A DNA stretch of 59,602 nucleotides from Candidatus Moraniibacteriota bacterium (GCA_013334245.1 JAAXXZ010000005.1:1-59602); one strand, 5' to 3'; counted from the first letter of the stretch, positions 27,221 to 52,350 are shown. Made by a program: numbers and translations. Notes: generated from the sequence alone by a model not told the origin.

Positions 27221-27407
27221 ACTTTCAATGATATCACGGGAGAAGGATATCCGGTGGTGGGACAATTGTATGGACATGGACGTGCCGTGTCAATGATTCC
27301 CGTTCGCCGGTCAACATTTTCCTTCCGTTCGAATCGTGGTATACTTCCGACTGACAAGGGGAGTACATCCGTATTTCGTCTCCTCTTTCCGTAAACACAA
27401 AGAACGT

Positions 27408-28484
27408 ATGGGAATGTTTTCCAAGGAACGGTTTCTCGGTGTCGATTTCGGAACGGAATCGATCAAGGCCGTGGAGCTTGAGCTTCGCGGCGGACGCCCG
27501 TTTCTCACGAATTACGGCGAGGCGACACTGTTTCCACCCCATGATCCGCAAAAACCGGCGGTGCGGTCTTTCCGTGAGGATATGGCCGTCAGATTTCGCG
27601 TGCTGTTGGAGAAGATGAAGCCGGAAACGAGAGAAGTCTGCATTTCCATGCCGTCCTTTCTGGGTCTCATATCGCTCATCGACTTTCCGAAAATGACGGA
27701 TGCCGAACTCGAGGAGGCGGTACGGTTCGAGGCGAGAAAGTACATCCCGAGTCCGCTCGAGGACGTCTCGCTGTCATGGGAACTGCTCGAGAAGAAGGGC
27801 GCGGACGAAGCGGCATCCGAAGACGGAAAACAACAGAAATCGGAGATACTTCTCGTCGCGGCGCTCAATAAGGACGTCTGGCAGTACGAAGGATACGTGA
27901 ACGCGGTCGGATACAAGATGAAGCTGCTTGAATTGGAAACGTTTTCCATCGTCCGCGCGGTCGTCGGGAACGATCCCGGAACGTTTCTCGTCATCGATAT
28001 TGGCGCGCGCGCCGCGAACCTGATACTCGTCGAGGGAGGGTACGTGAAGAAGAGTCGGAGCATCGACGCCGGTGGTCGCGATATCACGCGTTCCCTCGCG
28101 GAGAGCCTGAACATATCTCCCGATCGTGCCGACGCCCTCAAGAAGAGCGGCAAGGATTTTCTGAACGCGAAGGACATAGCGGTAATTTTTCCCGCGGTGG
28201 AAACGATCGTCAGCGAGGCATCCCGCATGGTCGATTCCTGGAAAGTGAAGCGACCGGATGGGAATATCGACGGGGTCATTCTCTCCGGTGGAACGGGGCG
28301 TCTTGCCGGTCTCACTTCGTATCTCTCGAAAAAGCTCGGCGTTCCCGCGACCTTGTCGGATCCGTGGCGTGCCATTTCCTATCCGCCCGCCCTTCAGACG
28401 AAGATAGAATCCATCGGTGCGTCCTTTTCTGCGGCGATCGGACTCGCATTGTACGGAGCCGCGGAGTCCGAGAAGAAGAAATGA
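27408..28484 (+). CDS. pilM: Type IV pilus assembly protein PilM
   Basis: LGVDFGTESIKAVEL, actin-like fold, VIDIGA, VILSGGTG. Confidence 0.92.
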   Translation: MGMFSKERFLGVDFGTESIKAVELELRGGRPFLTNYGEATLFPPHDPQKPAVRSFREDMAVRFRVLLEKMKPETREVCISMPSFLGLISLIDFPKMTDAELEEAVRFEARKYIPSPLEDVSLSWELLEKKGADEAASEDGKQQKSEILLVAALNKDVWQYEGYVNAVGYKMKLLELETFSIVRAVVGNDPGTFLVIDIGARAANLILVEGGYVKKSRSIDAGGRDITRSLAESLNISPDRADALKKSGKDFLNAKDIAVIFPAVETIVSEASRMVDSWKVKRPDGNIDGVILSGGTGRLAGLTSYLSKKLGVPATLSDPWRAISYPPALQTKIESIGASFSAAIGLALYGAAESEKKK

Positions 28485-28513
28485 AAACGATACCGCATTT
28501 TACGGAATGACCG

Positions 28514-29089
28514 ATGCGGGATATAATTCGGAAGAACGATAAACCCAAAAACGGAAATCATATGCCGGGAATGAACTTGGCACAGTCGACCCAACAGGGA
28601 AAGATAGGAAGCGGAAGACATATCGGCAAGGGATTGATTTTTCTTCTTTCCGTCGTTTCGGCGGTGGTTGTGATCTGGGTCGGTTTTTCCTTTTATGAAC
28701 GATTCCTTTCCGGAAGCATTGCCGATGCCGAGAACAGGATCGTCGAAGAACGGCAGAACATGTCCATGGAGAAGGTCGATAAGGTGACCGATTTCCAATT
28801 CAGGCTTGAAAGGATAGCAGCAGAAAAAGAGGGCTTCCTCGGTCCTGCCGAAATGCTCGCCTCTGTCGAAACCCTGATTCTCCCGAGCGTGAAACTTTCC
28901 GATTTCGCCTACGAAGAATCGGAACGGACGGTCCATATGAAAGGTGAGGCGGATTCCTTCAGGACCGTCGTCCAACAGATGGTACTGCTGAAGAAAATGC
29001 CAAAATTGGAGACATTGACCGTTCCGACGCTTGGAAGGAACAAGGACGGGCGAATCGATTTCACGTTCTCGATCATCTTCGGACAATAG
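28514..29089 (+). CDS. pilN: PilN-like pilus alignment protein
   Basis: Single TM helix plus ferredoxin-like C-terminus, located between pilM and pilO-like genes. Start uncertain. Confidence 0.65.
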   Translation: MRDIIRKNDKPKNGNHMPGMNLAQSTQQGKIGSGRHIGKGLIFLLSVVSAVVVIWVGFSFYERFLSGSIADAENRIVEERQNMSMEKVDKVTDFQFRLERIAAEKEGFLGPAEMLASVETLILPSVKLSDFAYEESERTVHMKGEADSFRTVVQQMVLLKKMPKLETLTVPTLGRNKDGRIDFTFSIIFGQ

Positions 29090-29105
29090 GAATAAAAACA
29101 AACGT

Positions 29106-29873
29106 ATGTCGATCAAGAGACTTTCCTTCCCGATATTCATCATCATCGTCATATTCCTCGGCGTCTTCCTCGTGAAGCCGGCGGTCGTTTCGGTCATGGA
29201 AAAAAGACAGGTGAAGGCAGAAAAGGAGGCCGAACTTTCGGCGGTGGAAGCGACGAAACAGAATCTGGAAGTACTGGCGAGTTCCCGGGAGTCGTTGCTC
29301 GGTACCGATGAGGGTAGAATGGTATACGCCTATCTTCCCGTTTCACTCGACCAGGATCGCATCGTCGACGTTTTCAACTACTATGCCATGCAATCCGGCG
29401 CTGTGGTCAACAATATCACCTTCGAGTCGAAGGATACGAAAAAATCGCCGTATTTTCCTGCGGACACGCAGGAGGAAATGGATCCGCTGAGCGCCCCGAA
29501 GTCGCCCGTGCCGAGCACATTCACCTTGTCGGCGAACATCCAGGGATCGTACGAAAGCATCAAGGCATTCCTGAAGGAGGTATCGCGACCCGCCCGTTCG
29601 TACAAGCTGGTGTCGTTCGCGATCGTCAAGAAGGATTCCGGTACCGATCAGAGCGGTCAGCCGATGCCTGATTCCGGCATCCTTTCAGGGAGCTTTGCCG
29701 CGGAGTTCTACTATCTTCCCGAGAAGCAATATCCGCGAGGATACCTTCTTCCGGTATTCAGCGCCGGGCAGTTCGATATGACCGGTATCAGGGATCTCAT
29801 GGCGAAAGAAAAGACGGTTCCCGCGTTGTCCGATCCGGGAAACGCCGGACGAGGAAATCCATTCGTACTGTAG
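29106..29873 (+). CDS. pilO: PilO-like pilus alignment protein
   Basis: N-terminal TM, coiled coil, ANIQGSYESIKAFL. Confidence 0.7.
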   Translation: MSIKRLSFPIFIIIVIFLGVFLVKPAVVSVMEKRQVKAEKEAELSAVEATKQNLEVLASSRESLLGTDEGRMVYAYLPVSLDQDRIVDVFNYYAMQSGAVVNNITFESKDTKKSPYFPADTQEEMDPLSAPKSPVPSTFTLSANIQGSYESIKAFLKEVSRPARSYKLVSFAIVKKDSGTDQSGQPMPDSGILSGSFAAEFYYLPEKQYPRGYLLPVFSAGQFDMTGIRDLMAKEKTVPALSDPGNAGRGNPFVL

Positions 29874-29890
29874 TAAGCGCACATACCGGT

Positions 29891-31621
29891 ATGAGTGATG
29901 TCACCCTCGAGCAGGAGAAGGTTTCCGATTCGGCGGATGACGTGGTTGTCGCTGGCGCAGGCACGTCAGAGGGCGCCGACGAGATCGCTTTGGAAAAGCG
30001 GGCCGAGACTCTCGGAATGCCGTTTATCGGCGAGGCACCGAAAAAAATCGAACGTTCGGTCATCGGATACATTCCCGAGGATGCGGCGTCGAAATATCGG
30101 ATGGCCGTGTACGAGAAGAGCGGAGAGACGCTTCGGGTCGCGATGACCGATCCGGAGGATTTTGAGGCGCTCAATATCCTTCGCTTCCTGGCCGAAAAGG
30201 AACAGAAGAGCATCGAGATAGCATTGGCTCCGCGGGTCGTCATCGACGAGATGCTAAAGAATTATACCGGTACGGACCGCGCCCTGAAGGAGGCGATACT
30301 TTCGCTCAAGAGCGACGACGTTTCGACCGGGGTCTCGCTCATGACCGACCTGGAGTCGGAGATCGAAACGACACGGCAGGACAAAGAGGTGCTTCAGGAC
30401 GCGCCGATCGCGCGGCTCGTGGAATCGATCGTGAAGCATGCCATCGAGGCTCGCGCGAGCGATATCCATATCGAGCCGGCCGAGGAGAACTATCGCGTCC
30501 GATTCCGAGTGGACGGATTGTTGCATTCGTCGCTCGTATTCCCTCCGCAGATCGGTCGGGCGGTAATCGCGCGCATCAAGATCCTTTCGAACCTGAAGAT
30601 CGATGAGAAGCGGAAACCGCAGGACGGCCGGTTTCGGGCCGAGCACGAGGGGGAGACCGTCGACCTGCGTATTTCGACGCTTCCGGTGGTGAACGGGGAG
30701 AAGGTTGTCATGCGTATTCTCGACAAGAAAGACAATATCGTCGATTTCAAACAGATGGGGCTGTGGGGTCGTACCGGGGAAGTGATGCGTAAGAAAATCG
30801 CCGATCCGTACGGTATCATACTCTTGACCGGCCCTACCGGCTCCGGAAAGTCGACGACGCTGTATTCGTTCCTGCAGATCCTGAATCAGGATGAGCGGAA
30901 CATAATCACGCTTGAGGATCCGGTCGAGTACTCCATTCAGGGAATCAACCAGAGCCAGGTGAAGCCCGAGATCGGATACACCTTTGCGAACGGGCTTCGT
31001 TCGATTTTGCGTCAGGACCCGAACGTGATCATGGTAGGGGAGATCCGGGACAGTGAAACGGCCGAACTTGCGATTCACTCCGCCCTGACGGGGCACCTCG
31101 TGCTGTCGACGCTCCACACGAACAACGCGATCGGATCGATACCCCGATTCGTCGACATGGGGGTCGAACCGTTCCTTATCGCTTCGGCCGTGCAGGTGGT
31201 GGCAGCGCAGCGGCTCGTCCGGCGGATCTGCCCGGATTGCCGGGAAGAGATCGATGTCACTCCGCTCCTTCGGAAGAAGCTCGAGAAAATCGCCGACGAA
31301 GTCGACCCGGACGAGCTGAAGATGTACGGGTACGATTCATCCAAAGGGGTCCACCTTTACCATGGGAAAGGATGCGAGGTGTGTGGGAATACCGGTTACA
31401 AGGGGCGTATCGCCATCTATGAGGCGCTCGAACTTACCGAGGAGGTCAAACGGATAGTCATCGACGACCGCGCGAACGAGTCAAAGCTTCAGGAGGAGGC
31501 GAAGCGGCAGAAGATGCTCACGATGCGGCAGGACGGGCTTCTGAAAGTCTTTTGTGGGGTGACGACGCTCGCGGAAGTGGAGCGGGTGACGGACGGCGAT
31601 GTCCTGGTGGATGAGGAATAA
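29891..31621 (+). CDS. pilB: Type IV pilus assembly ATPase (PilB/GspE)
   Basis: ASDIHIEP, GPTGSGKSTTLY, TLEDPVE, LRQDPNVIMVGEIRD, CPDC...CEVC, GRIAIYE. Confidence 0.96.
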   Translation: MSDVTLEQEKVSDSADDVVVAGAGTSEGADEIALEKRAETLGMPFIGEAPKKIERSVIGYIPEDAASKYRMAVYEKSGETLRVAMTDPEDFEALNILRFLAEKEQKSIEIALAPRVVIDEMLKNYTGTDRALKEAILSLKSDDVSTGVSLMTDLESEIETTRQDKEVLQDAPIARLVESIVKHAIEARASDIHIEPAEENYRVRFRVDGLLHSSLVFPPQIGRAVIARIKILSNLKIDEKRKPQDGRFRAEHEGETVDLRISTLPVVNGEKVVMRILDKKDNIVDFKQMGLWGRTGEVMRKKIADPYGIILLTGPTGSGKSTTLYSFLQILNQDERNIITLEDPVEYSIQGINQSQVKPEIGYTFANGLRSILRQDPNVIMVGEIRDSETAELAIHSALTGHLVLSTLHTNNAIGSIPRFVDMGVEPFLIASAVQVVAAQRLVRRICPDCREEIDVTPLLRKKLEKIADEVDPDELKMYGYDSSKGVHLYHGKGCEVCGNTGYKGRIAIYEALELTEEVKRIVIDDRANESKLQEEAKRQKMLTMRQDGLLKVFCGVTTLAEVERVTDGDVLVDEE

Positions 31622-31627
31622 TCTTTC

Positions 31628-32098
31628 ATGATGCGACCTATGGGAATCTCGAAATTCGCCGGGAAAAAGATACTGCTCATGGAAGACGATTTTTTTGTGA
31701 GGGACATCTATCAGAAGAAACTCAGGGAATGCGGATTCGTGGTGGAAACGGCCGGTGACGGCGTCGAGGGCATGGAGCGGTTGAAGCGGTCCACACCCGA
31801 TCTTATCCTACTCGATATCTTCATGCCGTACATGGACGGTCGCGACGTGATGCGGGAAATCAAGGGCGATCCGGAACGGAAAAACATTCCCGTCATCCTG
31901 CTGACGAACTTCTCGGCACACGAGGGCGTTCGCGACGGATTCGATCTCGGCGCCGAGGAATACCTTATCAAATCGCACTTCACGCCGTCCGAGGTCCTGG
32001 GGAAGGTGGAATCCATATTGGAAAAGGGCGCGAAAGGTGATACCCTGAAGGAAACGGAACTATCTAAGGAGATCGCTTCCGATTCGGTCGGAGCGTAG
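31628..32098 (+). CDS. Single-domain response regulator (receiver)
   Basis: MEDD, DLILLDIFMPYMDG, LLTN, YLIKS. Confidence 0.92.
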   Translation: MMRPMGISKFAGKKILLMEDDFFVRDIYQKKLRECGFVVETAGDGVEGMERLKRSTPDLILLDIFMPYMDGRDVMREIKGDPERKNIPVILLTNFSAHEGVRDGFDLGAEEYLIKSHFTPSEVLGKVESILEKGAKGDTLKETELSKEIASDSVGA

Positions 32099-32123
32099 CG
32101 GTAAGCAAACATCAACACGAATT

Positions 32124-33221
32124 ATGTCAGACGGATCAGAAATACTGCATGCCGAGCAGCGGGTCAAGAACCTCCTTCTGCTCGTTGGGCAGCAAGGGGC
32201 CTCGGACCTCCACTTGGTGGTGGGACGGTATCCGACCCTCCGTATCAACGGGAAGCTGCATCCGATCACGCAGGAAAAGATTTTGACGCCGGCTGATACG
32301 AAGGCGCTGTCGGATATCCTGCTCACCGAAGAGGGGAAGGAAGAGCTTCTCTCTTCCGGACAGGCGGATTTCTCGTACAATTTCGAGAACCGGATGCGGT
32401 TCCGAACGAACGTCTTTTTTCAGAAGGGATTCGTGAGCGTGACGATGCGGTTCGTCATGGACCACGTGCGGAACCTGGAGGAACTCAATATTCCGACATC
32501 GCTGTACAATTTCGCGAACTATTCGCAGGGGCTGGTGCTCGTGACGGGACCGGTCGGTCACGGAAAGTCTACGACGCTCGCCGCGATCATAGAGTATATC
32601 AATCACAATCAGGAGAAGCACATCGTGACCATCGAGGACCCGATTGAATTCGTCTACACGCAGGACCGATGCATCATCAACCAGCGTGAAGTCGGACGAG
32701 ACGCGAAAACGTTCCCGCTTGCGCTCCGCGCGGTATTCCGGGAGGATGCCAACGTAGTCCTATTGGCGGAACTTCGCGACCTTGAGACAATCGCCACCGC
32801 AATGACCGCGGCCGAGACCGGACATCTTATCTTCGCGACGGTCCATACGAACGACGCGGCCCAGACCATCGACCGTATCATCGACGTCTTCCCGGCACAC
32901 CAGCAGAACCAGATCCGTTCGCAGCTTGCGAGCGTGCTGCTCGGCGTTGTTTCGCAGCGGCTCATTCCGCGGATGGACGGGGCCGGACGCATCCCGGCCA
33001 TCGAAATCATGCTCAAGAACCATGCGGTCGAGAACCTCATCCGTGAAAACAAAACGCACCAGCTCGACAGCGTCATAGAGACGAGTCTTAAGGAAGGCAT
33101 GGTGTCGCTCGATCGGTCGCTTGCCGACCTGGTCCGTCGGGGTCTCATCTCCGTGAATGACGCACTCCTGTATTCGAAGAACCGGCAGTATCTCGAGATG
33201 CTCATCGCGAAGTCCGAGTAA
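32124..33221 (+). CDS. pilT: Type IV pilus retraction ATPase
   Basis: ASDLHL, GPVGHGKSTTLA, TIEDPIE, AAETGHLIFATVHT, AIEIM. Confidence 0.93.
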   Translation: MSDGSEILHAEQRVKNLLLLVGQQGASDLHLVVGRYPTLRINGKLHPITQEKILTPADTKALSDILLTEEGKEELLSSGQADFSYNFENRMRFRTNVFFQKGFVSVTMRFVMDHVRNLEELNIPTSLYNFANYSQGLVLVTGPVGHGKSTTLAAIIEYINHNQEKHIVTIEDPIEFVYTQDRCIINQREVGRDAKTFPLALRAVFREDANVVLLAELRDLETIATAMTAAETGHLIFATVHTNDAAQTIDRIIDVFPAHQQNQIRSQLASVLLGVVSQRLIPRMDGAGRIPAIEIMLKNHAVENLIRENKTHQLDSVIETSLKEGMVSLDRSLADLVRRGLISVNDALLYSKNRQYLEMLIAKSE

Positions 33222-33253
33222 GCGCACGACATAAGAAACGAACGGGAAAACGT

Positions 33254-34465
33254 ATGAAGTTCGCATTCAAGGCGAAAAACGTCGAAGGCGTGGTCAGGGA
33301 AGGGGTCGTCGAGGCGGATACCCGCGATGCCGCCAGTCTTCTGCTTCAAAGGAACGGCCTTCTGCCGGTATCCATCCGAGAGGAAGGCGGAAAATCCGCT
33401 GTCATGAAGGATCTCGCGCGTATCTGGGAAGGTGTGAGTCGCAAGGAGCTTGTGGCGTTTTTCCGTCAGTTAGGGGTACTCATCGAGGCGAAGGTTCCGG
33501 TCACCGCGTCACTTCTGGCTATCGCTGAGGAGACTGACAATTCGTACTTTCGTATCATTCTCAAAGAGACCAAGGACGATGTTGACGACGGTATGTCGCT
33601 TTCGGACGCCATGGCGAAACATGCGGACGTCTTTTCTCCTCTCATGGTGAATCTTATCCACGCCGGAGAGGTTTCCGGAGGACTCCAGCATTCCGTCACG
33701 TTCGTGGCTGACACGCTTGAGAAGGATTACTATCTCGTTTCGAAGATCAAGGGAGCTCTTTATTATCCCGCTTTCGTTCTCAGTGTTTCCGTCATAATCG
33801 GTTTTCTGGTCGTAGCGTTCATCATCCCGAAAATTACGGTCGTACTGAAGGACTTCGATGCGACTTTGCCGTGGTATACACAAGCAATCGTCGCGACGAG
33901 CGACTTTCTGTCGATGTACTGGTGGACGGTCGTTCTTGTCGTGGGAGCGGTGGTCGGATCGTTCATATACTATATCCGGACCCCGGACGGTCGGCGCGCC
34001 TGGGACGAGCAGATCTTCTCGATTCCGATCGTCGGCAAGATCGCGCAGTATGTCTTTATCGCGAGACTTTCAGAAAACCTCGGCGTGCTGCTCAACGGCG
34101 GTATTCCGATCATCCGGTCGCTGTCCATCGTGAGCAATATCGTCGGAAATCAGACCTTTCAGCATATCATTCTCGAAGCGGCCGAAGAGGTCCGCAAGGG
34201 CGGGAACATGAGTACGGCGTTCTTTCGGGCCAAGGAGATTCCGCACCTGGTCTCGCAGATGGTGAAGATCGGGGAAGAGAGCGGAACCATCTCCAATATC
34301 CTTCGGAACATCGCGGCATTCTACTCCCAGGAGGTGGACGGAATGACCCGAAACCTGACAACTCTTTTGGAGCCGCTCCTTATCGTCATTCTCGGTATCG
34401 GCGTCGCGATTCTGGTTGTCGGAATCCTGCTCCCGATATATAATGTGGTCGGAAACTTCACGTGA
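33254..34465 (+). CDS. pilC: Type IV pilus platform protein (PilC/GspF)
   Basis: FFRQLGVLIEAKVP, GEVSGGL, YYPAFV, GEESGT, EPLLIV. Confidence 0.95.
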   Translation: MKFAFKAKNVEGVVREGVVEADTRDAASLLLQRNGLLPVSIREEGGKSAVMKDLARIWEGVSRKELVAFFRQLGVLIEAKVPVTASLLAIAEETDNSYFRIILKETKDDVDDGMSLSDAMAKHADVFSPLMVNLIHAGEVSGGLQHSVTFVADTLEKDYYLVSKIKGALYYPAFVLSVSVIIGFLVVAFIIPKITVVLKDFDATLPWYTQAIVATSDFLSMYWWTVVLVVGAVVGSFIYYIRTPDGRRAWDEQIFSIPIVGKIAQYVFIARLSENLGVLLNGGIPIIRSLSIVSNIVGNQTFQHIILEAAEEVRKGGNMSTAFFRAKEIPHLVSQMVKIGEESGTISNILRNIAAFYSQEVDGMTRNLTTLLEPLLIVILGIGVAILVVGILLPIYNVVGNFT

Positions 34466-34528: not shown

Positions 34529-34894
34529 ATGAAGAAAATGAAACAGGGCTTCACCCTTATCGAACTTCTTATCGTCATCGCGATCATCGGTATCCTCGCC
34601 TCGATCGTCCTCGTGAGCCTCTCGAGTGCTCGTGAGAAGGCGAAAGTCGCTTCATTCAAGGCGGCGGCGCATTCGATTCAGTCCGCTGCCATCATGGCGT
34701 GCGACTCGGCAGCGCTGAATAACAGCTCGATTCCGGTCAACAATGCCTCGTACATCGGTACGCTGACCTACGGGACCAACAGTTGCGGTTCCAACGGAAA
34801 CGGGACGTTCTCGATAACGGCGCCTTCGACTGGCCTTACGACCGCCTGCAATGCGACGGTGACTGATACGGGAGTAACGTTTAACGGTTGCTAG
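34529..34894 (+). CDS. pilA: Type IV major pilin, copy 1
   Basis: Class III signal G|FTLIELLIVIAIIGILAS; strong RBS; C-terminal Cys residues. Confidence 0.92.
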   Translation: MKKMKQGFTLIELLIVIAIIGILASIVLVSLSSAREKAKVASFKAAAHSIQSAAIMACDSAALNNSSIPVNNASYIGTLTYGTNSCGSNGNGTFSITAPSTGLTTACNATVTDTGVTFNGC

Positions 34895-34981
34895 GGGGAA
34901 GATTCCGCGTCGGATAACGAAAGACGGCACAGCAGCATGCGGATGCCGTTTTTCGTTGCCTTTCTTTTCTGATAGAATCAG

Positions 34982-35938
34982 ATGGTGCCGTATTGTCCTA
35001 TGCATTCCCATATGCCGGAAGAGTGGAAAATCGCGGTGCTCATACCGTGCCTGGATGAAGAGCGTACCATCGGGAACGTGGTACGCGATTTCAAGGATGT
35101 ATTGCCTTCCGCCGACATCTACGTCTATGATAACGCATCGACTGATTTCACCACCGCCGTGGCGCTTCAGGCAGGCGCGATCGTGCGGATGGAATCCCGA
35201 CGGGGAAAAGGGAACGTCGTTCGGTCGATGTTCCGGGACATCGATGCGGACATTTACGTGATGGTGGACGGAGACGATACGTATTCCGCTGCCGATGCGG
35301 AAAAACTCGTGTCGGCCGTAGAAGGGGGGGCTGACATGGCCGTCGGTGATCGGAATATCGTGGGCCAATACGGGCGTCAGGGTCCGCGGCGTTTTCATCT
35401 GACTGGAAATCTTCTCGTTCGGACGCTCGTGCACGGGCTGTTCAAGTCCGAAATACACGACATCATGAGCGGGTATCGTGCGTTTTCCAGGAGGTTCGTG
35501 AAGAACTACCCAGTCTTGTTCGGGGGCTTCCAGCTGGAGACGGATATGACCGTTTTCGCGTCTCATCGTTTCCTTTCGGTCCGGGAGATTCCGGTACGGT
35601 ATCGGGAGCGGAAAGAAGGGGGGAGTCCTTCCAAACTCAGGACGTATGCCGACGGTTTCGCGGTGATTCTCGCCATCGTCAATCTGTATAGGTACTATCG
35701 TCCGTTCGCTTTTTTCTCGTTTCTAGCGGTCGTATTCGCGTTATCAGGCCTCGCGTCCGGAACTCCCGTCCTGATCGAATACATAGAAACGCGCTATATC
35801 CTTCGGGTGCCGCTCGCGATTCTCGCCTCGAGTCTGGTGGCCATCGGTGCGAACCTGTTCGTAAGCGGAATCCTGTCCGATACGGTCCATCGCAGCCAGC
35901 GAGAGGCGTTTGAGACGGACATCCGGCGGAAATCATGA
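34982..35938 (+). CDS. GT2 glycosyltransferase, polyprenyl-phosphate sugar synthase-like (DPM1/GtrB-like)
   Basis: IPCLDEE, DNASTD, GKG, MVDGDDTY, SGYRAFSR, two C-terminal TM helices. Confidence 0.9.
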   Translation: MVPYCPMHSHMPEEWKIAVLIPCLDEERTIGNVVRDFKDVLPSADIYVYDNASTDFTTAVALQAGAIVRMESRRGKGNVVRSMFRDIDADIYVMVDGDDTYSAADAEKLVSAVEGGADMAVGDRNIVGQYGRQGPRRFHLTGNLLVRTLVHGLFKSEIHDIMSGYRAFSRRFVKNYPVLFGGFQLETDMTVFASHRFLSVREIPVRYRERKEGGSPSKLRTYADGFAVILAIVNLYRYYRPFAFFSFLAVVFALSGLASGTPVLIEYIETRYILRVPLAILASSLVAIGANLFVSGILSDTVHRSQREAFETDIRRKS

Positions 35939-35954
35939 ACCTTTCCGAACGACT

Positions 35955-36545
35955 ATGACGAATCCGAGAACGGTTCCGTTTTCATCAGGTGATTCCGGAT
36001 TATTGGACCGGTTGCTGTGTCAGCTCCGTTTCAGAAGGGTTGCCGGAATGATTCGCGACCGGTCGAACGTTCTCGATGTGGGGTGCGGATATCGGGGCGA
36101 ACTGCTTCGGACCCTGAGCCCGAGGATCGCTTCCGGTCGCGGAATAGACGTATCCGTGGACGACTCTGTGTCGGCGGGCAATGTCGAACTTGTCGGGGGT
36201 GACCTTTCCGAAGGGTTGCCGTTCCCGGACGCGACGTTCGATGTCGTGGTTTCTCTGGCGAATATCGAACATCTCGAGGATTCGGAGTCGGTCGTCCGGG
36301 AGATTTACCGCGTGCTCAAGCCCGGAGGGACACTTCTTCTGACGACGCCGACAAAAAAAGCGAAACCGGTTCTCGAGTTCCTTGCTTATACGCTCCACGT
36401 CATTAGCGAGCGTGAGATTCGAGATCATAAGCGATATTTTTCCGGTGATGAGCTTGGTCGAATATGTCGTGACTGCGGTTTTTCCGAATGGTCGTATCGG
36501 ACATTCCAATGTGGAATGAACGGGTTTCTGGTCTCCAAAAAATAA
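35955..36545 (+). CDS. Class I SAM-dependent methyltransferase
   Basis: VLDVGCG, GIDVS, FDVVVSLANIEHL, RVLKPGG. Confidence 0.92.
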   Translation: MTNPRTVPFSSGDSGLLDRLLCQLRFRRVAGMIRDRSNVLDVGCGYRGELLRTLSPRIASGRGIDVSVDDSVSAGNVELVGGDLSEGLPFPDATFDVVVSLANIEHLEDSESVVREIYRVLKPGGTLLLTTPTKKAKPVLEFLAYTLHVISEREIRDHKRYFSGDELGRICRDCGFSEWSYRTFQCGMNGFLVSKK

Positions 36546-36557
36546 GGACTTCCCATT

Positions 36558-38276
36558 ATGGACGTGATGAACCGTTTTTGGGTGAAGACGTGCGCGAATG
36601 CCGTTCGCCGAGTCGGCACGATCGCAAGAGGCGTCGCAGACATTCGCGGGGTGCGAACGCTGTGTGTCTTCCTCTTCTTTGCGGCGTTCTTCTCGCTGAC
36701 CTATCTGACGGTCGACCGCGTCGTCAGTCTCGATGATCCTCTGTTCCATATCCGCTTCGCGGAAACGGTGCGCGAACGGGGCCTCTCCACGTTTCGCGAT
36801 TTCGACGGGCTTCCATTTTCCGAGATAGGGAAGTCCTATCTCATATATTACAATTTCCTGTTTTACGCGGCCCTCATCCCATTCACGTTCTTTCATCCGC
36901 TTATCATGGGAATAAAGGTGTACGGGGTCCTGTCGGCGGCCGCAACGCTTACCGTGTCGTACCTCTTTCTCCGGACATTTTCCGTTCCGAAGCCGTTCTT
37001 CTGGGTGCTCGGGCTGGCGAGCGCGATCTCACCCTTCGATCTCGTGAGATTCATCATGGCTCGGCCGTTCTCATTGGCGCCGGCGTTGCTTATGCTTATC
37101 ATCCTTGCGGGGTATCGGAAGCGGTATGCCCTCCTCGCGAGCCTTTCCGTCGCGTATTTTCTCTGGCATACCGCGACATTCTTCTTTCCGATATTCTGCA
37201 TCGTCATCCTTTCCGCCTTCGGTGGACTCTATGGCCGGAAAGTCGATCTGAAGCTGCTCCTGAGCACGATCTTCGGGACGGCTCTCGGTTTCGTGATCGT
37301 TTCCCTGATTGCACCGGGTTTTCCGACCTACATGAGGGAAATAATCTTCGGGGTATTCGCCGACACGATCGTGGGGAAAAAGGTTGCGATCGCGGAGGGA
37401 GGGGAGCTGTACCCGGTAAAGATATTCGATTATCTTTCCATGAACATGGTTCTTTTCGGGGGGTTTCTGATCGGAATATCGTTGGAGATTTCCAGGTATG
37501 TCGGTATGCGACGCGAACGTTCTTTGACCGTTCAACCCGATAGACAGGTCGTCGAGGGCGCGCTCTTCGCGATCTCGCTTTCGTTCTTCCTTTTTTCGCT
37601 CATCAGCCGGCGGAATCTCGATTTCTTCGTCATCGCGGTGATGGCGTATATCCCGATGGGTCTCGTTCATTTCTCCGAGGGGATACGCGCGTTGGGACCG
37701 ATTTCGAAGAGGGCGCTGGTTGCCGGTGTTGCGATATTCGTCGTCTATCTCGTGTCGGCGACCGGACTTACGATAAATGACCGCATTGCCTCCATGCAGC
37801 CGTATGATTTTCTTGAACGACCGTCGGAATGGCTCAAAAATAATGTGAAGTCCGGCGAAATCGTTTTCAATACGACCTGGAACTGGTTCCCGTCGCTCTA
37901 CCTGTATAATCCCGGAAATCGGTATATTGCGGGCATAGAGCCGCGGTTCCTCTATAACTACGATCCTGAAAAATACTGGGAGTGGTGGCATATCAGCGGA
38001 GGAGGATACGTATGCCGTTCGGAACGGTGTGATCAGATGGAGTTGAGGCAGCAGGCGGTCGTCGCGTCCGACGACGAGGAGGTGAAGAAGACATGGGCGA
38101 AAGAAAACGAGAACGAGGTGGCGGACGCGATCCGCAATGACTTCTCGTCCTCGTATATCGTGACATCGGACGATTTTTCCGCGCTCTCGATCATCCTCGG
38201 GAAGGGGGCCCGATTCGAGGAAGTTTACCGGGATCCGATAAACCGGAAAATGAGGATTTATCGTATACGTGATTGA
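36558..38276 (+). CDS. Polytopic membrane protein, GT-C fold glycosyltransferase (STT3/AglB-like)
   Basis: About 11-13 hydrophobic helices; DDPLFHIR after TM1; soluble C-terminal domain with IVFNTTWNWFP. Confidence 0.65.
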   Translation: MDVMNRFWVKTCANAVRRVGTIARGVADIRGVRTLCVFLFFAAFFSLTYLTVDRVVSLDDPLFHIRFAETVRERGLSTFRDFDGLPFSEIGKSYLIYYNFLFYAALIPFTFFHPLIMGIKVYGVLSAAATLTVSYLFLRTFSVPKPFFWVLGLASAISPFDLVRFIMARPFSLAPALLMLIILAGYRKRYALLASLSVAYFLWHTATFFFPIFCIVILSAFGGLYGRKVDLKLLLSTIFGTALGFVIVSLIAPGFPTYMREIIFGVFADTIVGKKVAIAEGGELYPVKIFDYLSMNMVLFGGFLIGISLEISRYVGMRRERSLTVQPDRQVVEGALFAISLSFFLFSLISRRNLDFFVIAVMAYIPMGLVHFSEGIRALGPISKRALVAGVAIFVVYLVSATGLTINDRIASMQPYDFLERPSEWLKNNVKSGEIVFNTTWNWFPSLYLYNPGNRYIAGIEPRFLYNYDPEKYWEWWHISGGGYVCRSERCDQMELRQQAVVASDDEEVKKTWAKENENEVADAIRNDFSSSYIVTSDDFSALSIILGKGARFEEVYRDPINRKMRIYRIRD

Positions 38277-38402
38277 TGTTTCCGCACGCGATGATGCCTC
38301 CCGTTTTTCGTGGTAAGCTGTGGATACATCGGAGTGAACAGTAAAGCAATCGGCCTGTTTTTGTCGCTTGTTCGAAGCGATCGGATAACGGGGATACCGG
38401 GT

Positions 38403-38879
38403 ATGAATCTTCTCGAACCAACCATCGGCGGGCGGATCGTCCGCATGGCGGTCGTCGTGCTTGCGTTCTTCTTTACGGGCGTAGCCTGCGCGAACCCTCT
38501 GCCGGCAAGTGAAAGCGGTATCAAGATATGGGTCGCTCATGCGGAATCGGACGGACACGGTACCAGCGATGCGCTATCGCCGTCGGGTTGTGTTGAAGGA
38601 GACGGACTTACTATCGGTGCCGGGACGGGACGGAACGTTTCAGGCGTCCCTTTGTATGAGATCCTGAACCACGGGAAGGAAGGATTCGGATGCCCGTCCG
38701 TCAAACAGAGGAAGGAGGACGGGATCATACGGATGATTCGGAATCAGTCGTCGATGTCCCGTTCGGGACTGAGCGGATTCCTCGTGTTATTGGTCACGCC
38801 CGGCCCTGACGACATATTCGGTGCCGGCTGTCCCGATCCGATCGATCGGGCATCGGGGTGTTGCCAGGTGAGGGATTGA
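38403..38879 (+). CDS. Hypothetical Cys-rich, possibly exported protein
   Basis: ORF with a hydrophobic N-terminal segment; no recognised motif; start uncertain. Confidence 0.35.
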   Translation: MNLLEPTIGGRIVRMAVVVLAFFFTGVACANPLPASESGIKIWVAHAESDGHGTSDALSPSGCVEGDGLTIGAGTGRNVSGVPLYEILNHGKEGFGCPSVKQRKEDGIIRMIRNQSSMSRSGLSGFLVLLVTPGPDDIFGAGCPDPIDRASGCCQVRD

Positions 38880-38891
38880 CCGATTTCGGTT

Positions 38892-38919
38892 TTGACGGTC
38901 GTTCCATATATGATAAAAT
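38892..38919 (+). promoter_or_regulatory. Promoter for pilin copy 2
   Basis: TTGACG-16 nt-TAAAAT with TGn extension. Confidence 0.5.
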
Positions 38920-38953
38920 TCCTTTGGGTCCGAAGAGTCTTTCTAAAAAAAAT

Positions 38954-39322
38954 ATGAAGCATGCAAAACTCGGTTTCACACTGATCGAACTTCTTATCGT
39001 CATCGCGATTATCGGTATCCTCGCCTCGATCGTTCTTGTGAGCCTTTCAAGCGCCCGTGAGAAGGCGAAAGCGGCTTCTTTCAAGGCGTCGACGCATTCG
39101 CTCCAGTCCGCGGCCATCATGGCGTGTGATTCGGGGGCGTTGAACTCGACAACTCTTCCGATCGGAAATGCCTCGTATGTCGGTAACCTTACCTTCGGTA
39201 GCGGAACGAACTGCGGAACTACGGGTACCGGGGCCTTCAATGTCACCGCCACGTCGAGCGGATTGACGACGACATGCACCGCGACCATAAGTCCGACGGG
39301 TGTCGTTTATAACGGATGCTAG
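38954..39322 (+). CDS. pilA: Type IV major pilin, copy 2
   Basis: MKHAKLG|FTLIELLIVIAIIGILAS; collinear paralogue of 34529..34894. Confidence 0.92.
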   Translation: MKHAKLGFTLIELLIVIAIIGILASIVLVSLSSAREKAKAASFKASTHSLQSAAIMACDSGALNSTTLPIGNASYVGNLTFGSGTNCGTTGTGAFNVTATSSGLTTTCTATISPTGVVYNGC

Positions 39323-39425: not shown

Positions 39426-40220
39426 ATGATCCTTTTTCTTATCGTTGTCGGTCTTCTCGTCGGGAGTTTCCTGAATGTCGTACTCACGCGCCTGGACACC
39501 GAAGAGTCGTTCGTATCGGGGCGTTCGCGCTGCGATTCCTGTCGGGAAATAATCCGTTGGTATGACAATGTTCCCGTGTTGTCGTACATAATTCTTCGCG
39601 GGAGATGTCGGTCTTGTGGTAAGGCGATTTCGCCGCAGCATCTGTTCATGGAACTCTCGACTGCGGCGCTGTTCGCTGTAGCCGGGGCGGTCATTCCGGT
39701 CGAGGATACGCCCGCATCCGTTTTCGGGTTGGTGTCGGTGCTCGGGCTTATCGGGGTCCTTTCGGTGGTATTCGTCCATGACCTGATGCACATGGAGATT
39801 CCGGTTTCCGTGCTGGTGTTCGGAATCGTTTGGACGGTCGTCTCGTTGTTTCTCGTCTGGGTATCCACCGGTCCATCGGAACCGTTTCTCGCGTCCCGAT
39901 TATGGGAGGGGGTCGTCGGCGGTGCGATCGCGTTCCTCTCGTTCTATTCGTTGGTCTATTTTTCCGACGAGACGTGGATGGGGATGGGGGATGCGTGGTT
40001 GGCGCTCATACTTGGTCTGGCACTGGGATGGCGATTGCTGCTCCCGGCACTGACCCTTGCGTTCGGTTCCGGGGCAATCGTCGGAATCGTGCTTATCGTT
40101 CTCGGTCGGAAGGGATTGCAGAGCCGCATTCCGTTCGGTCCGTTTCTATCCGGGAGCGTGATTGTTATGCTTATTTTTGGTACAATGATGGGGGAGGCAT
40201 TCGGATATTTCATGATATAG
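39426..40220 (+). CDS. pilD: Prepilin peptidase
   Basis: GSFLNVV, RSRCDSC, GRCRSC, VHDLMHMEIP, MGMGDAW, IPFGPFL. Confidence 0.95.
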   Translation: MILFLIVVGLLVGSFLNVVLTRLDTEESFVSGRSRCDSCREIIRWYDNVPVLSYIILRGRCRSCGKAISPQHLFMELSTAALFAVAGAVIPVEDTPASVFGLVSVLGLIGVLSVVFVHDLMHMEIPVSVLVFGIVWTVVSLFLVWVSTGPSEPFLASRLWEGVVGGAIAFLSFYSLVYFSDETWMGMGDAWLALILGLALGWRLLLPALTLAFGSGAIVGIVLIVLGRKGLQSRIPFGPFLSGSVIVMLIFGTMMGEAFGYFMI

Positions 40221-40226
40221 GAAAAT

Positions 40227-40799
40227 ATGCGACGCGGACGGAATACATACCACGCGAAACGGAAGGGATTCACCCTGGTCGAAGTGATCATCACGACGGC
40301 GATTATCGGCATCGTTTCGGCGATCTCGATCGTTTCCATGAGCGGCCTGAAGGTCAAACGCGAGGTGCAAGGGAATGCGCGCGTAGTGGCTGCGGCGATT
40401 CGTGAGGCGCAGAATAACGCGATAACGGGAAAGAACATCCGCGGAGCCACATGTACGATGAACTCCAGTCCGGCGGAATGTGCGCCCTGCGGCTTCGAAA
40501 TCAGTGCGTCGGGAAACTCGTATATCATGACACAGTCGAATGCCGACCTGTCCGGGGGCGGGGCCTGTTCCGCATACGGGGGCGGGAAGAGTGTCTCGCT
40601 GACGAACGGAGTGACGATTTCCGCTTCGAAAGTCCGGTTCGTCGTACCGCGCGCCGAACCGAAGACATCGATGGACGCCGATCTCGATTCAGGTTCCATC
40701 GATTTCGTTCTGAGCAAGGGTGCGGTGTCGCTTCATGTCTGCGTGTATCCGCTCGGAAGGGTAGAGGAACGGCCGATCGGGAACACGAATTGTAATTAG
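40227..40799 (+). CDS. Minor pilin (FimT/GspH-like)
   Basis: G|FTLVEVIITTAIIGIVS. Confidence 0.85.
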   Translation: MRRGRNTYHAKRKGFTLVEVIITTAIIGIVSAISIVSMSGLKVKREVQGNARVVAAAIREAQNNAITGKNIRGATCTMNSSPAECAPCGFEISASGNSYIMTQSNADLSGGGACSAYGGGKSVSLTNGVTISASKVRFVVPRAEPKTSMDADLDSGSIDFVLSKGAVSLHVCVYPLGRVEERPIGNTNCN

Positions 40800-40819
40800 G
40801 GGGCGAACGAGTCCGATAT

Positions 40820-41401
40820 ATGAACGGTAAGAGAAAAAAATTGAACGGCTTTTCCCTTGGTGAGGTTCTTCTCTCTGTTTCAGTGCTGACCGTGGGCGTC
40901 TTGCCGGTGATGGCGGCGATGACCAAGGGTTTCCAGTCGTCGCTCGCGAGCAGGGATGTCATCGTTGCGTCCGGACTCGCGCAGGAAGGCGCGGAACTGG
41001 TGAAGAACGTGAAGGATAACAATGTTCTTGCCGGCAGTGCGTCCCTTTCGGCGTGGCTTCCCTCGTCGGGATCGACATGGAACGATTGCCGGATCGACGC
41101 GGGAGATCAGGTGCTTTCTCCGGGAAACAGGATTTCCTGTGGATTGAGTGCGTCGGCTTTCAAGCTGTCCAAGCAGTCGTCAAATTTTCTTGGGCACGGC
41201 GGTGCGGGGGTGGCCACGAAATTCAGCCGGAAGATCCTTCTTGATTACGGTGGATCCGGGAATGAACGAGTAACCTGCATCAGCGCGGTGTATTGGGGGC
41301 AGAGTTATACCCCGTCGAGCATCGCTGACGCGCGTGCGAATTGCAAGGTAAGCAAGAAATGCGTGTATGCGGAATCGGTGCTGACGCCGTGGGGATCATA
41401 G
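40820..41401 (+). CDS. Minor pilin (PilV-like)
   Basis: G|FSLGEVLLSVSVL...ASGLAQEGAELV. Confidence 0.8.
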   Translation: MNGKRKKLNGFSLGEVLLSVSVLTVGVLPVMAAMTKGFQSSLASRDVIVASGLAQEGAELVKNVKDNNVLAGSASLSAWLPSSGSTWNDCRIDAGDQVLSPGNRISCGLSASAFKLSKQSSNFLGHGGAGVATKFSRKILLDYGGSGNERVTCISAVYWGQSYTPSSIADARANCKVSKKCVYAESVLTPWGS

Positions 41402-41406
41402 TTATT

Positions 41407-42027
41407 ATGGATGGGAGTATGAAGGGAAATCGGAAACAATTCAGTAAAAAGGCCGCGGGATTCACCCTCATCGAACTGATCGTTTCGATCGGCGTGTTCG
41501 CGATCATGTCCGTCTCGTTGTCGGCTGCCTTCACGTCCGGATTCTCCACATTCGGGAACTCGCGCGAGATCCAGCACGATGTCGAGGCCGCGCAGTATTC
41601 GATGAACATGCTTGCGAAATATCTCCGTACGAGCTCGGTACTCGAGGTCGCCGCGGCCAAGGACGATATCCGGTTCTATGATTATTCGGCGAAGCGTTGT
41701 TTCGAATACCGTTTCAATTCGGGTGGGACATTTCAAGCTAGGTGGAAAAATATCGCTTCCATGACCGATGTGACGACGGACTGTTCCGCTTCGACGCTTG
41801 GTTCGTGCGGTGATCCGTCATGTGTTTGGAAAAACCTTACTCCCACCTCGGGCTCATATGTTACCGGTCAGTTCTATGCGACGACTTCTACGAACGGGGC
41901 GACCAAATCGGTGGGTCGAGTCACGGTAACGATGTCCATCAAGAAGAACTCTACTGCTAAACTCAAGTCCGACATACAGACGACGGTTTCGCTCCGCGAC
42001 TACGACTATGTCGCGAAGACTCCCTGA
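41407..42027 (+). CDS. Minor pilin (PilW-like)
   Basis: G|FTLIELIVSIGVFAIM...QTTVSLR. Confidence 0.85.
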   Translation: MDGSMKGNRKQFSKKAAGFTLIELIVSIGVFAIMSVSLSAAFTSGFSTFGNSREIQHDVEAAQYSMNMLAKYLRTSSVLEVAAAKDDIRFYDYSAKRCFEYRFNSGGTFQARWKNIASMTDVTTDCSASTLGSCGDPSCVWKNLTPTSGSYVTGQFYATTSTNGATKSVGRVTVTMSIKKNSTAKLKSDIQTTVSLRDYDYVAKTP

Positions 42028-42140: not shown

Positions 42141-44240
<2,100 letters not shown>

Positions 44241-49788: not shown

Positions 49789-50514
49789 ATGAGGGAATAT
49801 AAGTCGCTTAATTTTGTATATATTCAGTTGATCGTATTAGTGTCAGTGGGGATTTCTTTTGTCGTTTTCTATTTTACTAAGTTCTCTCTATATATTGAGT
49901 TGCCATTCGGACTCGTTGTAGCAACTATTTTAGTCGTCGTTTTCTGGGAGAGTAGAGATAAAATTCTGGAAACGATACTATCTGAAGGATTGAAAGATCG
50001 GTATGGGACACTGATTATAAAATGGAAGTCACGTGGAATCGATAGTTTTTTAGGTGACGACGTAATCCAACTACTTCATGATTCGGAAAAATTGATCGAT
50101 ACATATGAATCAGCATTGTTAAACGATAGAATAGGGATGAATACTTATAGCGATTATTCCTTTCTATTATTGCCTGCAGCGAAAGCACTAGAAGGGACGA
50201 TGAAAAAGGCTCTGATTAAAATGGGATATATAAAAGATATTGAGTTAAAAGAAAACCCATCAATTAATGTGGGAGGTATTTTTAATCCTGTTGGTAATAC
50301 GAATATTTCAAATAATCTAAAAGACAAAAATCGCGACAAATCGGTGCCACATGAAATATATGCTACTTATCAGCAGTGCAGGAATCATATTCTTCACTAT
50401 GACTTGTTTAGTGATTCGAAAGTTCGTACAGTTGCAGCAAGTCGTGTGATGTTGAGTCGTATCGAAATGTGCATTGAAAACATGTACTATAAATTCAATT
50501 TGAAAAAAAAGTAG
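49789..50514 (+). CDS. Membrane-anchored HEPN protein, RnlA (RNase LS)-like C-terminal domain; AT-rich
   Basis: Two N-terminal TM helices; DYSFLLLPAAKALEG and Rx4H motif RNHILH. Confidence 0.65.
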   Translation: MREYKSLNFVYIQLIVLVSVGISFVVFYFTKFSLYIELPFGLVVATILVVVFWESRDKILETILSEGLKDRYGTLIIKWKSRGIDSFLGDDVIQLLHDSEKLIDTYESALLNDRIGMNTYSDYSFLLLPAAKALEGTMKKALIKMGYIKDIELKENPSINVGGIFNPVGNTNISNNLKDKNRDKSVPHEIYATYQQCRNHILHYDLFSDSKVRTVAASRVMLSRIEMCIENMYYKFNLKKK

Positions 50515-52347: not shown

Positions 52348-52350
52348 TAT

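Follow-up and report, generated by a model that had tools for sequence, protein, structure and literature searches.

Type IV filaments are N-glycosylated in archaea, where both archaellins and type IV pilins are substrates of AglB, an enzyme able to accept monophosphate-linked donors that AglJ-type family 2 glycosyltransferases (GT2s) produce; in Haloferax, AglP is an S-adenosylmethionine (SAM) methyltransferase that acts on the lipid-linked sugar. The bacterial pilin glycosylation systems that we found in the literature (PilO/TfpO, PglL, and TfpW) are all O-linked. In Pseudomonas aeruginosa, TfpW is a GT-C glycosyltransferase, encoded beside the major pilin gene, that uses a polyprenyl-monophosphate sugar to glycosylate pilin at the outer face (bioRxiv 10.1101/2020.04.19.049825). 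In the GtrA/GtrB/GT-C and CsbB/GtcA/YfhO systems, a GT2 makes a polyprenyl-phosphate monosaccharide that a GT-C transfers outside the cell (PMC11127046, PMC5836110). DPY19, a C-mannosyltransferase, takes a single sugar from dolichol-phosphate mannose (Dol-P-Man), works without a metal, and lacks a metal-binding acidic cluster (PMC10154233). Here, we describe a cassette found in a 59,602-nucleotide stretch of DNA from Candidatus Moraniibacteriota bacterium (GCA_013334245.1 JAAXXZ010000005.1:1-59602; hereafter, the window), in which a GT2, a methyltransferase, and an unannotated GT-C membrane protein are encoded between two major pilin paralogues. Its best explanation, and one that we regard as reasonably probable, is a pilin-dedicated glycosylation module within the type IV pilus operon, which would move a hexose, sometimes methylated, from polyprenyl phosphate to pilin, probably to Asn.

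The region from 27.3 to 42.0 kb of the window is a single type IV pilus cluster, with all genes co-directional. The gene order reported in a first-pass annotation of this DNA (pilin, GT2, methyltransferase, 572-aa protein, pilin) was confirmed, and lies between PilC and PilD:

34529..34894, + strand: pilin 1, a major pilin paralogue of 121 aa and proposed acceptor; N_methyl motif (GFxxxE), five N-x-S/T sequons, four Cys, zero Trp
34982..35938, + strand: GT2, predicted polyprenyl-phosphate hexose synthase of the DPM1/AglJ/GtrB type (PF00535, 4e-14)
35955..36545, + strand: class I SAM-dependent methyltransferase, cytoplasmic (Pfam Methyltransf_23/11/25)
36558..38276, + strand: GT-C membrane protein, 572 aa, polytopic, from a family that lacks annotation; fold resembling STT3/DPY19; suggested to glycosylate pilin
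38954..39322, + strand: pilin 2, a major pilin paralogue of 122 aa with four sequons and zero Trp; ATG 38954 is the true start

In gene context and logic, TfpW is the closest analogue of this cassette; here, too, the GT-C gene adjoins a major pilin gene. TfpW is set apart by its description, however, as it is Emb/Aft-like and O-linked, polymerizes its sugar, and uses decaprenyl-phospho-D-arabinofuranose made via DprE1/DprE2, whereas the cassette has a GT2 like AglJ or dolichol-phosphate mannose synthase (DPMS), a methyltransferase, and a GT-C whose nearest fold is STT3, and it is pilin Asn, not Ser/Thr, that tracks the GT-C. No arabinofuranose donor pathway (DprE1/DprE2, phosphoribosyltransferase) was found in the cassette. 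The closest enzyme set is that of the Haloferax Agl pathway (AglJ, AglP, AglB), with an AglJ-like GT2, a SAM methyltransferase, and an STT3-type transferase, although the AglJ model falls under its cut-off (217 vs 325 bits), the GT2s of relatives come from other DPM1-like subfamilies, and AglP is likened by description. The three-component Gtr and CsbB/GtcA/YfhO systems follow the same GT2 and GT-C logic, but their acceptors are O-antigen, teichoic acids, or further glycans, and a small GtrA-type flippase is among their components, whereas the cassette has no flippase gene, an added methyltransferase, and a context that points to a protein acceptor. DPY19 shares 13 helices, long external loops (EL) 1 and 5, and a C-terminal luminal domain, and is closest in the donor type proposed here and in the missing metal site; its acceptor, the Trp of W-x-x-W/C, sets it apart from a cassette whose flanking pilins are Trp-free.

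The nearest solved folds, both for the whole GT-C and for its C-terminal domain, are those of STT3/AglB/PglB (GT66, PF02516). Shared with these enzymes are a topology of ca. 13 membrane helices that places the N-terminus on the inside and a globular domain on the outside; a D-P-x-F-x-x-R-type motif that follows helix 1 and contains an invariant Asp; a helix-strand-Trp-motif arrangement past the last membrane helix; and co-located putative acceptors enriched in N-x-S/T. The loop between helices 9 and 10 has an invariant Glu (E-x-x-P), downstream of which lies an invariant Arg, and both are candidate counterparts of STT3 residues. The GT-C differs in having no detectable sequence-family membership, no conserved second acidic motif, and T-W-N-W-F instead of WWDYG. 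Compared with STT3 and PglB, it is also much smaller, and its donor, judging by the synthase, would be a monophosphate carrying one hexose rather than a diphosphate carrying an oligosaccharide. The extended sequon of bacterial PglB, D/E-x-N-x-S/T, is unenriched in cassette pilins.

The 572-aa protein had no match in Pfam, NCBIfam, or the sequences of the PDB, either alone or as a 39-member family and profile, and Pfam searches with distant family members gave only one sub-threshold match, to EpsG, in one member. A word-indexed search returned only 40 relatives, all from Patescibacteria and all unnamed or "hypothetical," while a full profile search returned 3061 cluster representatives at E <=0.001. 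The AlphaFold2 model built on the family alignment (pLDDT 88.7; pTM 0.87-0.88) has ca. 13 membrane helices, as counted from DSSP, long external loops 1 and 5, and a C-terminal alpha/beta domain of 160 residues; confidence was lowest (pLDDT 59-75) in the loop between helices 9 and 10, in the EL5 position. In a Foldseek comparison of the whole model with the PDB, the six best matches were all STT3 (E 4e-9 to 2e-8, TM 0.59-0.63), the first being 8pn9_A (4.4e-9) and the highest TM, 0.63, being that of 6s7o_A. Emb proteins were also among the matches, and the other families ranked as follows:

Human and yeast STT3: E 4e-9 to 4e-7, TM 0.57-0.63
DPY19: E 5e-8 (7zlg_A, 5.4e-8, TM 0.56), TM 0.56-0.59
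PglB: E 3e-6, TM 0.51-0.52
AftA: E 4e-6, TM 0.50
ALG12: E 2e-5, TM 0.47
ALG9: E 4e-4, TM 0.48
ArnT: E 6e-4, TM 0.50
Pmt4: E 0.07, TM 0.41; Pmt1/2, E 0.37

The C-terminal extracytoplasmic alpha/beta domain (residues 412-572; 37791..38273, + strand), modeled separately with a pLDDT of 93.5, retrieved eight STT3 chains (E 8e-3 to 7e-2, probability 0.60-0.99) and nothing else above noise. Thus, the Foldseek ranking and the C-terminal-domain search indicate a GT-C fold with the catalytic subunits of oligosaccharyltransferase (OST) as its closest solved relatives. The relationship with STT3 holds at the level of the fold only; membership in the STT3 sequence family is not demonstrable.

Conservation was read over 39 family sequences, some of them just 24% identical. 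Residues D60 and H64 (both in loop 1), K120, R164, R169, E283, R352, W425, and F444 are invariant in this alignment, and D59, W203, H204, E280, W441, and the Cys pair C486/C491 are conserved in at least 90% of members. The motifs of interest are:

36732..36764, + strand: first external loop motif DDPLFHIRFAE (residues 59-69), directly after helix 1; D60 is the candidate catalytic Asp
37386..37415, + strand: AIAEGGELYP, with E280 and E283, in the flexible segment that links helices 9 and 10
37611..37613, + strand: Arg352, invariant, candidate phosphate-binding Arg
37875-37889, + strand: TWNWF (residues 440-444), with W441 conserved in at least 90% of members and F444 invariant; EWLKNN, with the invariant W425, lies in the same domain

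The two motifs singled out at first pass, DDPLFHIR after the first transmembrane (TM) helix and TWNWF in the soluble domain, are therefore both in place. In a low-probability hhalign alignment, DDPLFHIRFAE is paired with yeast-type FDPWFNFRATK, or FDPWFNYRATK in yeast Stt3 itself, which puts D60 on Stt3 D47, and EWLKNN...IVFNTTWN is paired with YYWLRMN...KVA-AWWD, which puts T-W-N on W-W-D. By its position, E283-x-x-P is a candidate counterpart of the Glu of the SVSE/TIXE motif (SVSE-H-Q-P), and the spacing of R352 after this loop Glu suggests that it may bind phosphate; we take PglB R375 and Stt3 R404, presumed phosphate-binding Arg residues, to be its analogues. Across the family, TWNWF follows the pattern x-W-[NGSD]-[WYNM]-F, with Asp in few members and usually Asn, Gly, or Ser. 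The invariant residues between positions 100 and 270 are K120, R164, and R169, with W203 and H204 at 90% or above, and hhalign sets R169-P-F opposite D166-N-E168 of Stt3.

On the donor side, the best NCBIfam model for the GT2 is AglJ (TIGR04182), at the sub-cut-off score given above, and its best solved relative is the DPMS of Pyrococcus furiosus (5mlz, 1.4e-10). Its C-terminus carries two hydrophobic segments by hydropathy (ca. residues 240-266 and 272-299). By homology, then, the GT2 is assigned as a DPM1/AglJ-type polyprenyl-phosphate hexose synthase, in line with its initial description as a GT2 with two C-terminal TM helices. The GT2s of relatives, drawn from other DPM1-like subfamilies, are only 20-25% identical to it. 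Among 54 non-redundant loci, a GT2 is fused to the GT-C N-terminus in 11, and another 29 have one within 5 kb, together 40/54. The methyltransferase has zero transmembrane segments, and its PDB matches are only generic small-molecule and sugar O-methyltransferases. It was found in at least 15 of the 54 loci, an undercount because the single-query search missed a Pfam-visible copy in locus L004; L006 and similar loci encode the methyltransferase as a fusion with the GT2. Thus, the GT2-GT-C and GT2-methyltransferase fusions argue that the three activities form one pathway, of which the GT2 and the GT-C are the core, whereas the methyltransferase, given its more restricted (if undercounted) occurrence, is accessory and methylation optional. 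A role for the methyltransferase as the pilin N-methylase was considered and is unlikely, because PilD has its own A24_N domain and relatives fuse the methyltransferase to the GT2.

We compared the pilins of cassette loci (numbered L001-L056) with those of cassette-free loci selected by PilC (L057-L136). Pilins encoded between PilC and PilD were counted as major and those downstream of PilD as minor, and all figures are for globular domains. The sequons that had been counted in the window were exact: pilin 1 has five (N64 NNS, N65 NSS, N72 NAS, N91 NGT, and N108 NAT) and pilin 2 has four (N64 NST, N72 NAS, N78 NLT, and N96 NVT), two of which, N64 and N72, are at homologous positions. The accompanying caveat, that about three and two would arise by chance, was a fair one for the window alone, as shuffling of the globular domains gave 2.6 for pilin 1 (5 observed, p 0.07) and 2.0 for pilin 2 (4 observed, p 0.09), a marginal excess when both are combined by Fisher's method (p ~0.04). 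The sequon signal is strong only in the comparison across loci:

Major pilins, cassette loci (n=77): 2.77 N-x-S/T per 100 aa; Asn 10.4%; Ser+Thr 23.7%; sequon-free 9%
Major pilins, cassette-free loci (n=98): 1.17 N-x-S/T per 100 aa; Asn 5.5%; Ser+Thr 22.8%; sequon-free 38%
Minor pilins, cassette loci (n=71): 1.14 N-x-S/T per 100 aa; Asn 6.6%; Ser+Thr 19.9%
Minor pilins, cassette-free loci (n=79): 1.13 N-x-S/T per 100 aa; Asn 6.5%; Ser+Thr 19.2%

Between the two sets of major pilins, sequon density (p 1e-10) and Asn content (p 3e-15) differ, whereas Ser+Thr does not (p 0.44). In composition-preserving shuffles, an excess of N-x-S/T was seen only in the cassette major pilins (193 vs 161 expected, z 3.0, p ~0.001); the same shuffles gave no enrichment for N at +1, N at +3, or the reversed motif, nor for N-x-S/T in the other three pilin groups. 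These counts carry the caveat that D-x-S/T was over-represented in three of the four groups, so conserved structural motifs can inflate sequon-type counts. We also clustered the cassette loci at 80% PilC identity and paired each with its nearest cassette-free locus: the cassette member was higher in Asn in 30/30 pairs and in sequon density in 26/30, but in Ser+Thr in only 17/30. Relative to cassette-free major pilins, those of cassette loci have 1.86x Asn and 1.34x Gln, with Asp at 0.67x, Glu at 0.50x, Lys at 0.66x, and Trp at 0.72x. In L137, whose GT-C is 89% identical to that of the window, pilin 1 is 95% identical and keeps every sequon, with S/T swaps at +2; pilin 2 is 76% identical, and its sequons are relocated yet numerous (4 -> 5).

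The main rival, which we consider unlikely, is O-linked pilin glycosylation, in which the GT-C would act like a protein O-mannosyltransferase (PMT) or TfpW and move a hexose from polyprenyl phosphate to pilin Ser/Thr. O-mannosylation classically pairs a DPM1-type GT2, for the donor, with a GT-C transferase, and a DPMS is the best solved relative of this GT2; the precedents that we found for bacterial pilins are O-linked, the pilin globular domains are ca. 24% Ser+Thr, and the GT-C family has neither a conserved second acidic motif nor a true WWDYG. The two tandem GT-C paralogues of one distant locus, L140, are also as expected if some members extend a glycan. Yet Ser+Thr is alike with and without the cassette, both overall and in the pairs, whereas Asn doubles; the enrichment of Ser and Thr is confined to the +2 position after Asn and is absent at +1 and +3; and the fold is far nearer STT3 (4e-9) than PMT (GT39), for which the structural match is weak (Pmt4 0.07; Pmt1/2 0.37) and for which neither a PMT nor a MIR domain was detected with Pfam. 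Thus, we favor Asn over Ser/Thr because Asn and N-x-S/T track the GT-C when Ser+Thr does not, and because the fold is much nearer STT3 than PMT.

The gene neighborhood is strongly conserved across Patescibacteria. Of 48 informative homologue loci, 45 have the GT-C gene between PilC/pilin and PilD, among them L138, with a homologue of 31% identity, and the distant profile match L140. The window has its nearest relative in a bin assigned to Candidatus Moranbacteria, whose GT-C is 88% identical. The cassette was absent from all 80 related pilus loci gathered with the PilC alignment (0/80), and loci with and without it are interspersed when arranged by PilC identity, indicating many gains or losses of the cassette. 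Several bins with a typical Patescibacteria pilus locus (L010, L016, L028, L044, and others) are labeled Bdellovibrionales, Saccharibacteria, Fimivivens, or Bathyarchaeia, and are probably mis-binned or mislabeled.

That the GT-C decorates an envelope lipid or glycopolymer, like ArnT, GtrII/YfhO, or AftA, and merely rides in the pilus operon is improbable. Foldseek does also match AftA, ArnT, and Emb proteins, some homologues lie outside pilus loci beside GH130, Wzy_C, or other glycan genes, one distant member has the weak EpsG match, and multi-component systems of a GT2 and a GT-C usually decorate glycans (PMC11127046, PMC5836110). Set against this, the position between pilin and PilD is kept in 45/48 informative loci by proteins down to 31% identity, the patchy gain and loss of the cassette is always at this spot, and major-pilin composition co-varies with the cassette when minor-pilin composition does not. 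Activity as a DPY19-like C-mannosyltransferase on Trp, or as a non-catalytic pilin accessory protein, is very improbable. DPY19 is the second-best structural neighbor (5.4e-8, TM 0.56-0.59), and its metal independence and use of Dol-P-Man (PMC10154233) fit the missing acidic motif and the DPMS-like GT2, but C-mannosylation of the window pilins is excluded by their lack of Trp, Trp is depleted in cassette pilins (0.72x), and the invariant D60, E283, and R352 and the GT2 fusions argue for a working transferase.

Returning to the proposal of a pilin-dedicated module with probable transfer to Asn, several observations weigh against it. For the transferase, WWDYG is only partly kept at the equivalent site in the 39-sequence alignment, and a second acidic metal-binding motif (DxD/DxE/DxH) was not found, there being no invariant or near-invariant acidic residue at positions 100-270; because of these two absences and the absence of any model match, we do not file the GT-C under the STT3 sequence family. 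The hhalign probability against yeast-type STT3 was 11%, and 7% for the C-terminal part, in a test that is weak because the low-diversity STT3 profile (query yeast Stt3, essentially identical to PDB 6c26_A; listed matches all yeast-type at >=69% identity) holds yeast-type sequences only. No small multi-pass ORF that might encode a flippase occurs within 34529-39322, and a DPM1-type single-sugar monophosphate donor is usual for O- and C-mannosyltransferases, not for bacterial PglB. Among the acceptors, 9% of cassette major pilins are sequon-free; 15 cassette-free partners were reused in the paired test, so that its contrasts are incompletely independent; the shift from charged to amide residues is wider than sequon creation would require; sequon positions are unconserved among close relatives, with just 1-2 sequons in L008 and L028; and the pilin of L140 has 3.8% Asn. 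Some homologues (L006, L048, L053, L054, and L142) lie outside pilus loci altogether. The case for N-linkage is statistical, and all of the acceptor evidence is correlative.

Weighing both sides, we think it quite likely that the cassette glycosylates pilins and, given that it does, we lean toward an N-linkage. The first-pass annotation had offered a hedged reading of the locus as a dedicated, possibly N-linked and methyl-sugar pilin glycosylation module, to be checked by modeling the membrane protein, by synteny across Patescibacteria, and by asking if pilin sequon density follows the GT-C. The outcome supports that reading on each count, and through the GT2 type as well: the model is a confident GT-C with 13 helices, STT3 subunits are the solved structures nearest to it, its soluble domain retrieves STT3 only, synteny is strong (45/48 in pilus clusters, with the GT2 fused or adjacent in 40/54), and sequon density tracks the GT-C (2.77 vs 1.17 per 100 aa). 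A wider proposal, which we put forward tentatively and at somewhat less than even odds, is that Patescibacteria hold an unrecognized lineage of minimal, single-subunit, STT3-like N-glycosyltransferases, beyond detection by sequence models, that act with a DPM1/AglJ-type synthase, fused to them or encoded alongside, to attach a single hexose, sometimes methylated, from polyprenyl monophosphate to the N-x-S/T of type IV pilins.

In the mechanism that we propose, the GT2, at the cytoplasmic face, would move a hexose from a nucleotide sugar to polyprenyl monophosphate, the enzyme class being assigned by homology and the identities of sugar and lipid being presumed. The methyltransferase, where present, would O-methylate the sugar while still in the cytoplasm, as the GT2-methyltransferase fusions of relatives suggest, and the lipid-linked sugar would then be flipped across the membrane. 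At the outer side of the membrane, the GT-C would then place the sugar on the globular domains of the neighboring major pilins, ahead of their assembly. Within these domains, the most likely acceptor would be the Asn of N-x-S/T, with D60 and E283 holding its side chain and R352 binding the phosphate, and the helix start at W441-N442 may stand in for WWD.

Homologues in other settings differ in their gene complement. The subclade formed by L006, L048, L053, and L054 (ca. 31-34% identical), which lies outside pilus clusters, has each GT-C gene paired divergently with one for a 509-528-aa protein, confirmed in L006 as a GT2-methyltransferase fusion with two GH130 genes nearby; the substrate of this subclade may differ. 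In L140 (7001-15698), a pilin gene is followed by the two tandem GT-C paralogues, of 565 and 587 aa, and then by genes for a GT2, a GT4, a GT2, a TOD1_MUCI70 protein, a methyltransferase, and a Wzx-like Polysacc_synt protein. The extended complement of genes in the L140 lineage points to an oligosaccharide, not a single sugar. Two distant homologues, in L007 (6172-7336) and L142 (14375-15659), lie outside type IV pilus loci and near T4SS-type pilin gene clusters (PF18895). These T4SS-type pilins have essentially zero N-x-S/T sequons and are unlikely N-acceptors, and their proximity may reflect chance or a different acceptor.

The remaining features of the pilus cluster are:

27336..34465, + strand: PilM, PilN-like, an ORF with no assignment, PilB, a response regulator, PilT, and PilC (upstream context)
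34416..34444, + strand: weak promoter-like site 5' of pilin 1, TTGTCG-17-TATAAT, 10/12 consensus matches
38403..38879, + strand: weakly conserved ORF, 158 aa, with a signal-like hydrophobic N-terminus; no Pfam match; counterpart at the same place in L137
38892..38919, + strand: promoter-like site 5' of pilin 2, TTGACG-16-TAAAAT with a TG extension, 10/12, by consensus match only
39426..42027, + strand: PilD (prepilin peptidase), three minor pilins or pseudopilins, and then LigA (downstream context)

The 158-aa ORF, which the first-pass annotation omits, lies in the 677-bp stretch between the GT-C and pilin 2 (38277-38953). Its counterpart in L137, of 154 aa, has in common with it only a short SVKQRKEDGxI patch and the C-terminus; with so little shared with a relative whose GT-C is 89% identical, this ORF evolves far faster than its neighbors. 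The GT2 may start instead at ATG 35012, judging by the start position in L137, and the methyltransferase ORF is open from TTG 35910. The two promoter-like sites are the best sigma-70-like matches of the region, each 35-85 bp before a pilin start codon, with sigma-70-like sites overall not above shuffles (5 found vs 3.4 expected); the two pilin paralogues may be transcribed from promoters of their own, and transcription from pilin 1 may continue into the cassette. A stand-alone response-regulator gene between pilB and pilT (window 31628-32098) and an NAD-dependent DNA ligase gene directly 3' of the minor pilins (window 42171-44240) are both kept in nearly all of the ca. 130 Patescibacteria pilus loci examined. 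Beyond the pilus cluster, a low-GC island (window 51430-54894; 32-38% GC vs ca. 55% elsewhere) encodes HamA (PF08878, 3.8e-55) and then an 847-aa DEAD/ResIII helicase, a Hachiman-type anti-phage pair that was probably horizontally acquired; just upstream, at 49789-50514, is a protein matching the DNA-binding domain of RnlA toxin.

Among the surface structures of Patescibacteria, type IV pili are the best conserved, and they are thought to mediate attachment to host cells. The kind of system that we propose, in which a lipid-linked sugar and a GT-C act on an adjacent pilin, is already known, but we found no description in the literature of this GT-C family, or of any GT-C in Patescibacteria pilus loci. 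A 2024 study of Saccharibacteria pili notes that pilin glycosylation is unexplored in that group (PMC11623550). For annotation, our results offer a testable function for an unannotated protein family of ca. 3,000 representative sequences, and they illustrate how fold comparison, synteny, and acceptor composition can together reveal glycosylation systems missed by sequence models. An Asn linkage would extend the known range of oligosaccharyltransferase-like enzymes to a very small one (572 aa; ca. 800 aa with a fused donor synthase) of interest for mechanism and glyco-engineering.

To our knowledge, this would also be the first N-glycosylated bacterial type IV pilus. It would represent a new lineage of bacterial N-glycosylation, outside the groups that bear PglB, and a bacterial parallel to the AglB-dependent N-glycosylation of archaeal type IV filaments. 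Masking of the pilus from phage or host is speculation. That the presence of a single gene predicts pilin composition implies, more broadly, that the pili of dozens of uncultured lineages may be sugar-coated, which would affect host recognition, phage adsorption, and antigenicity.

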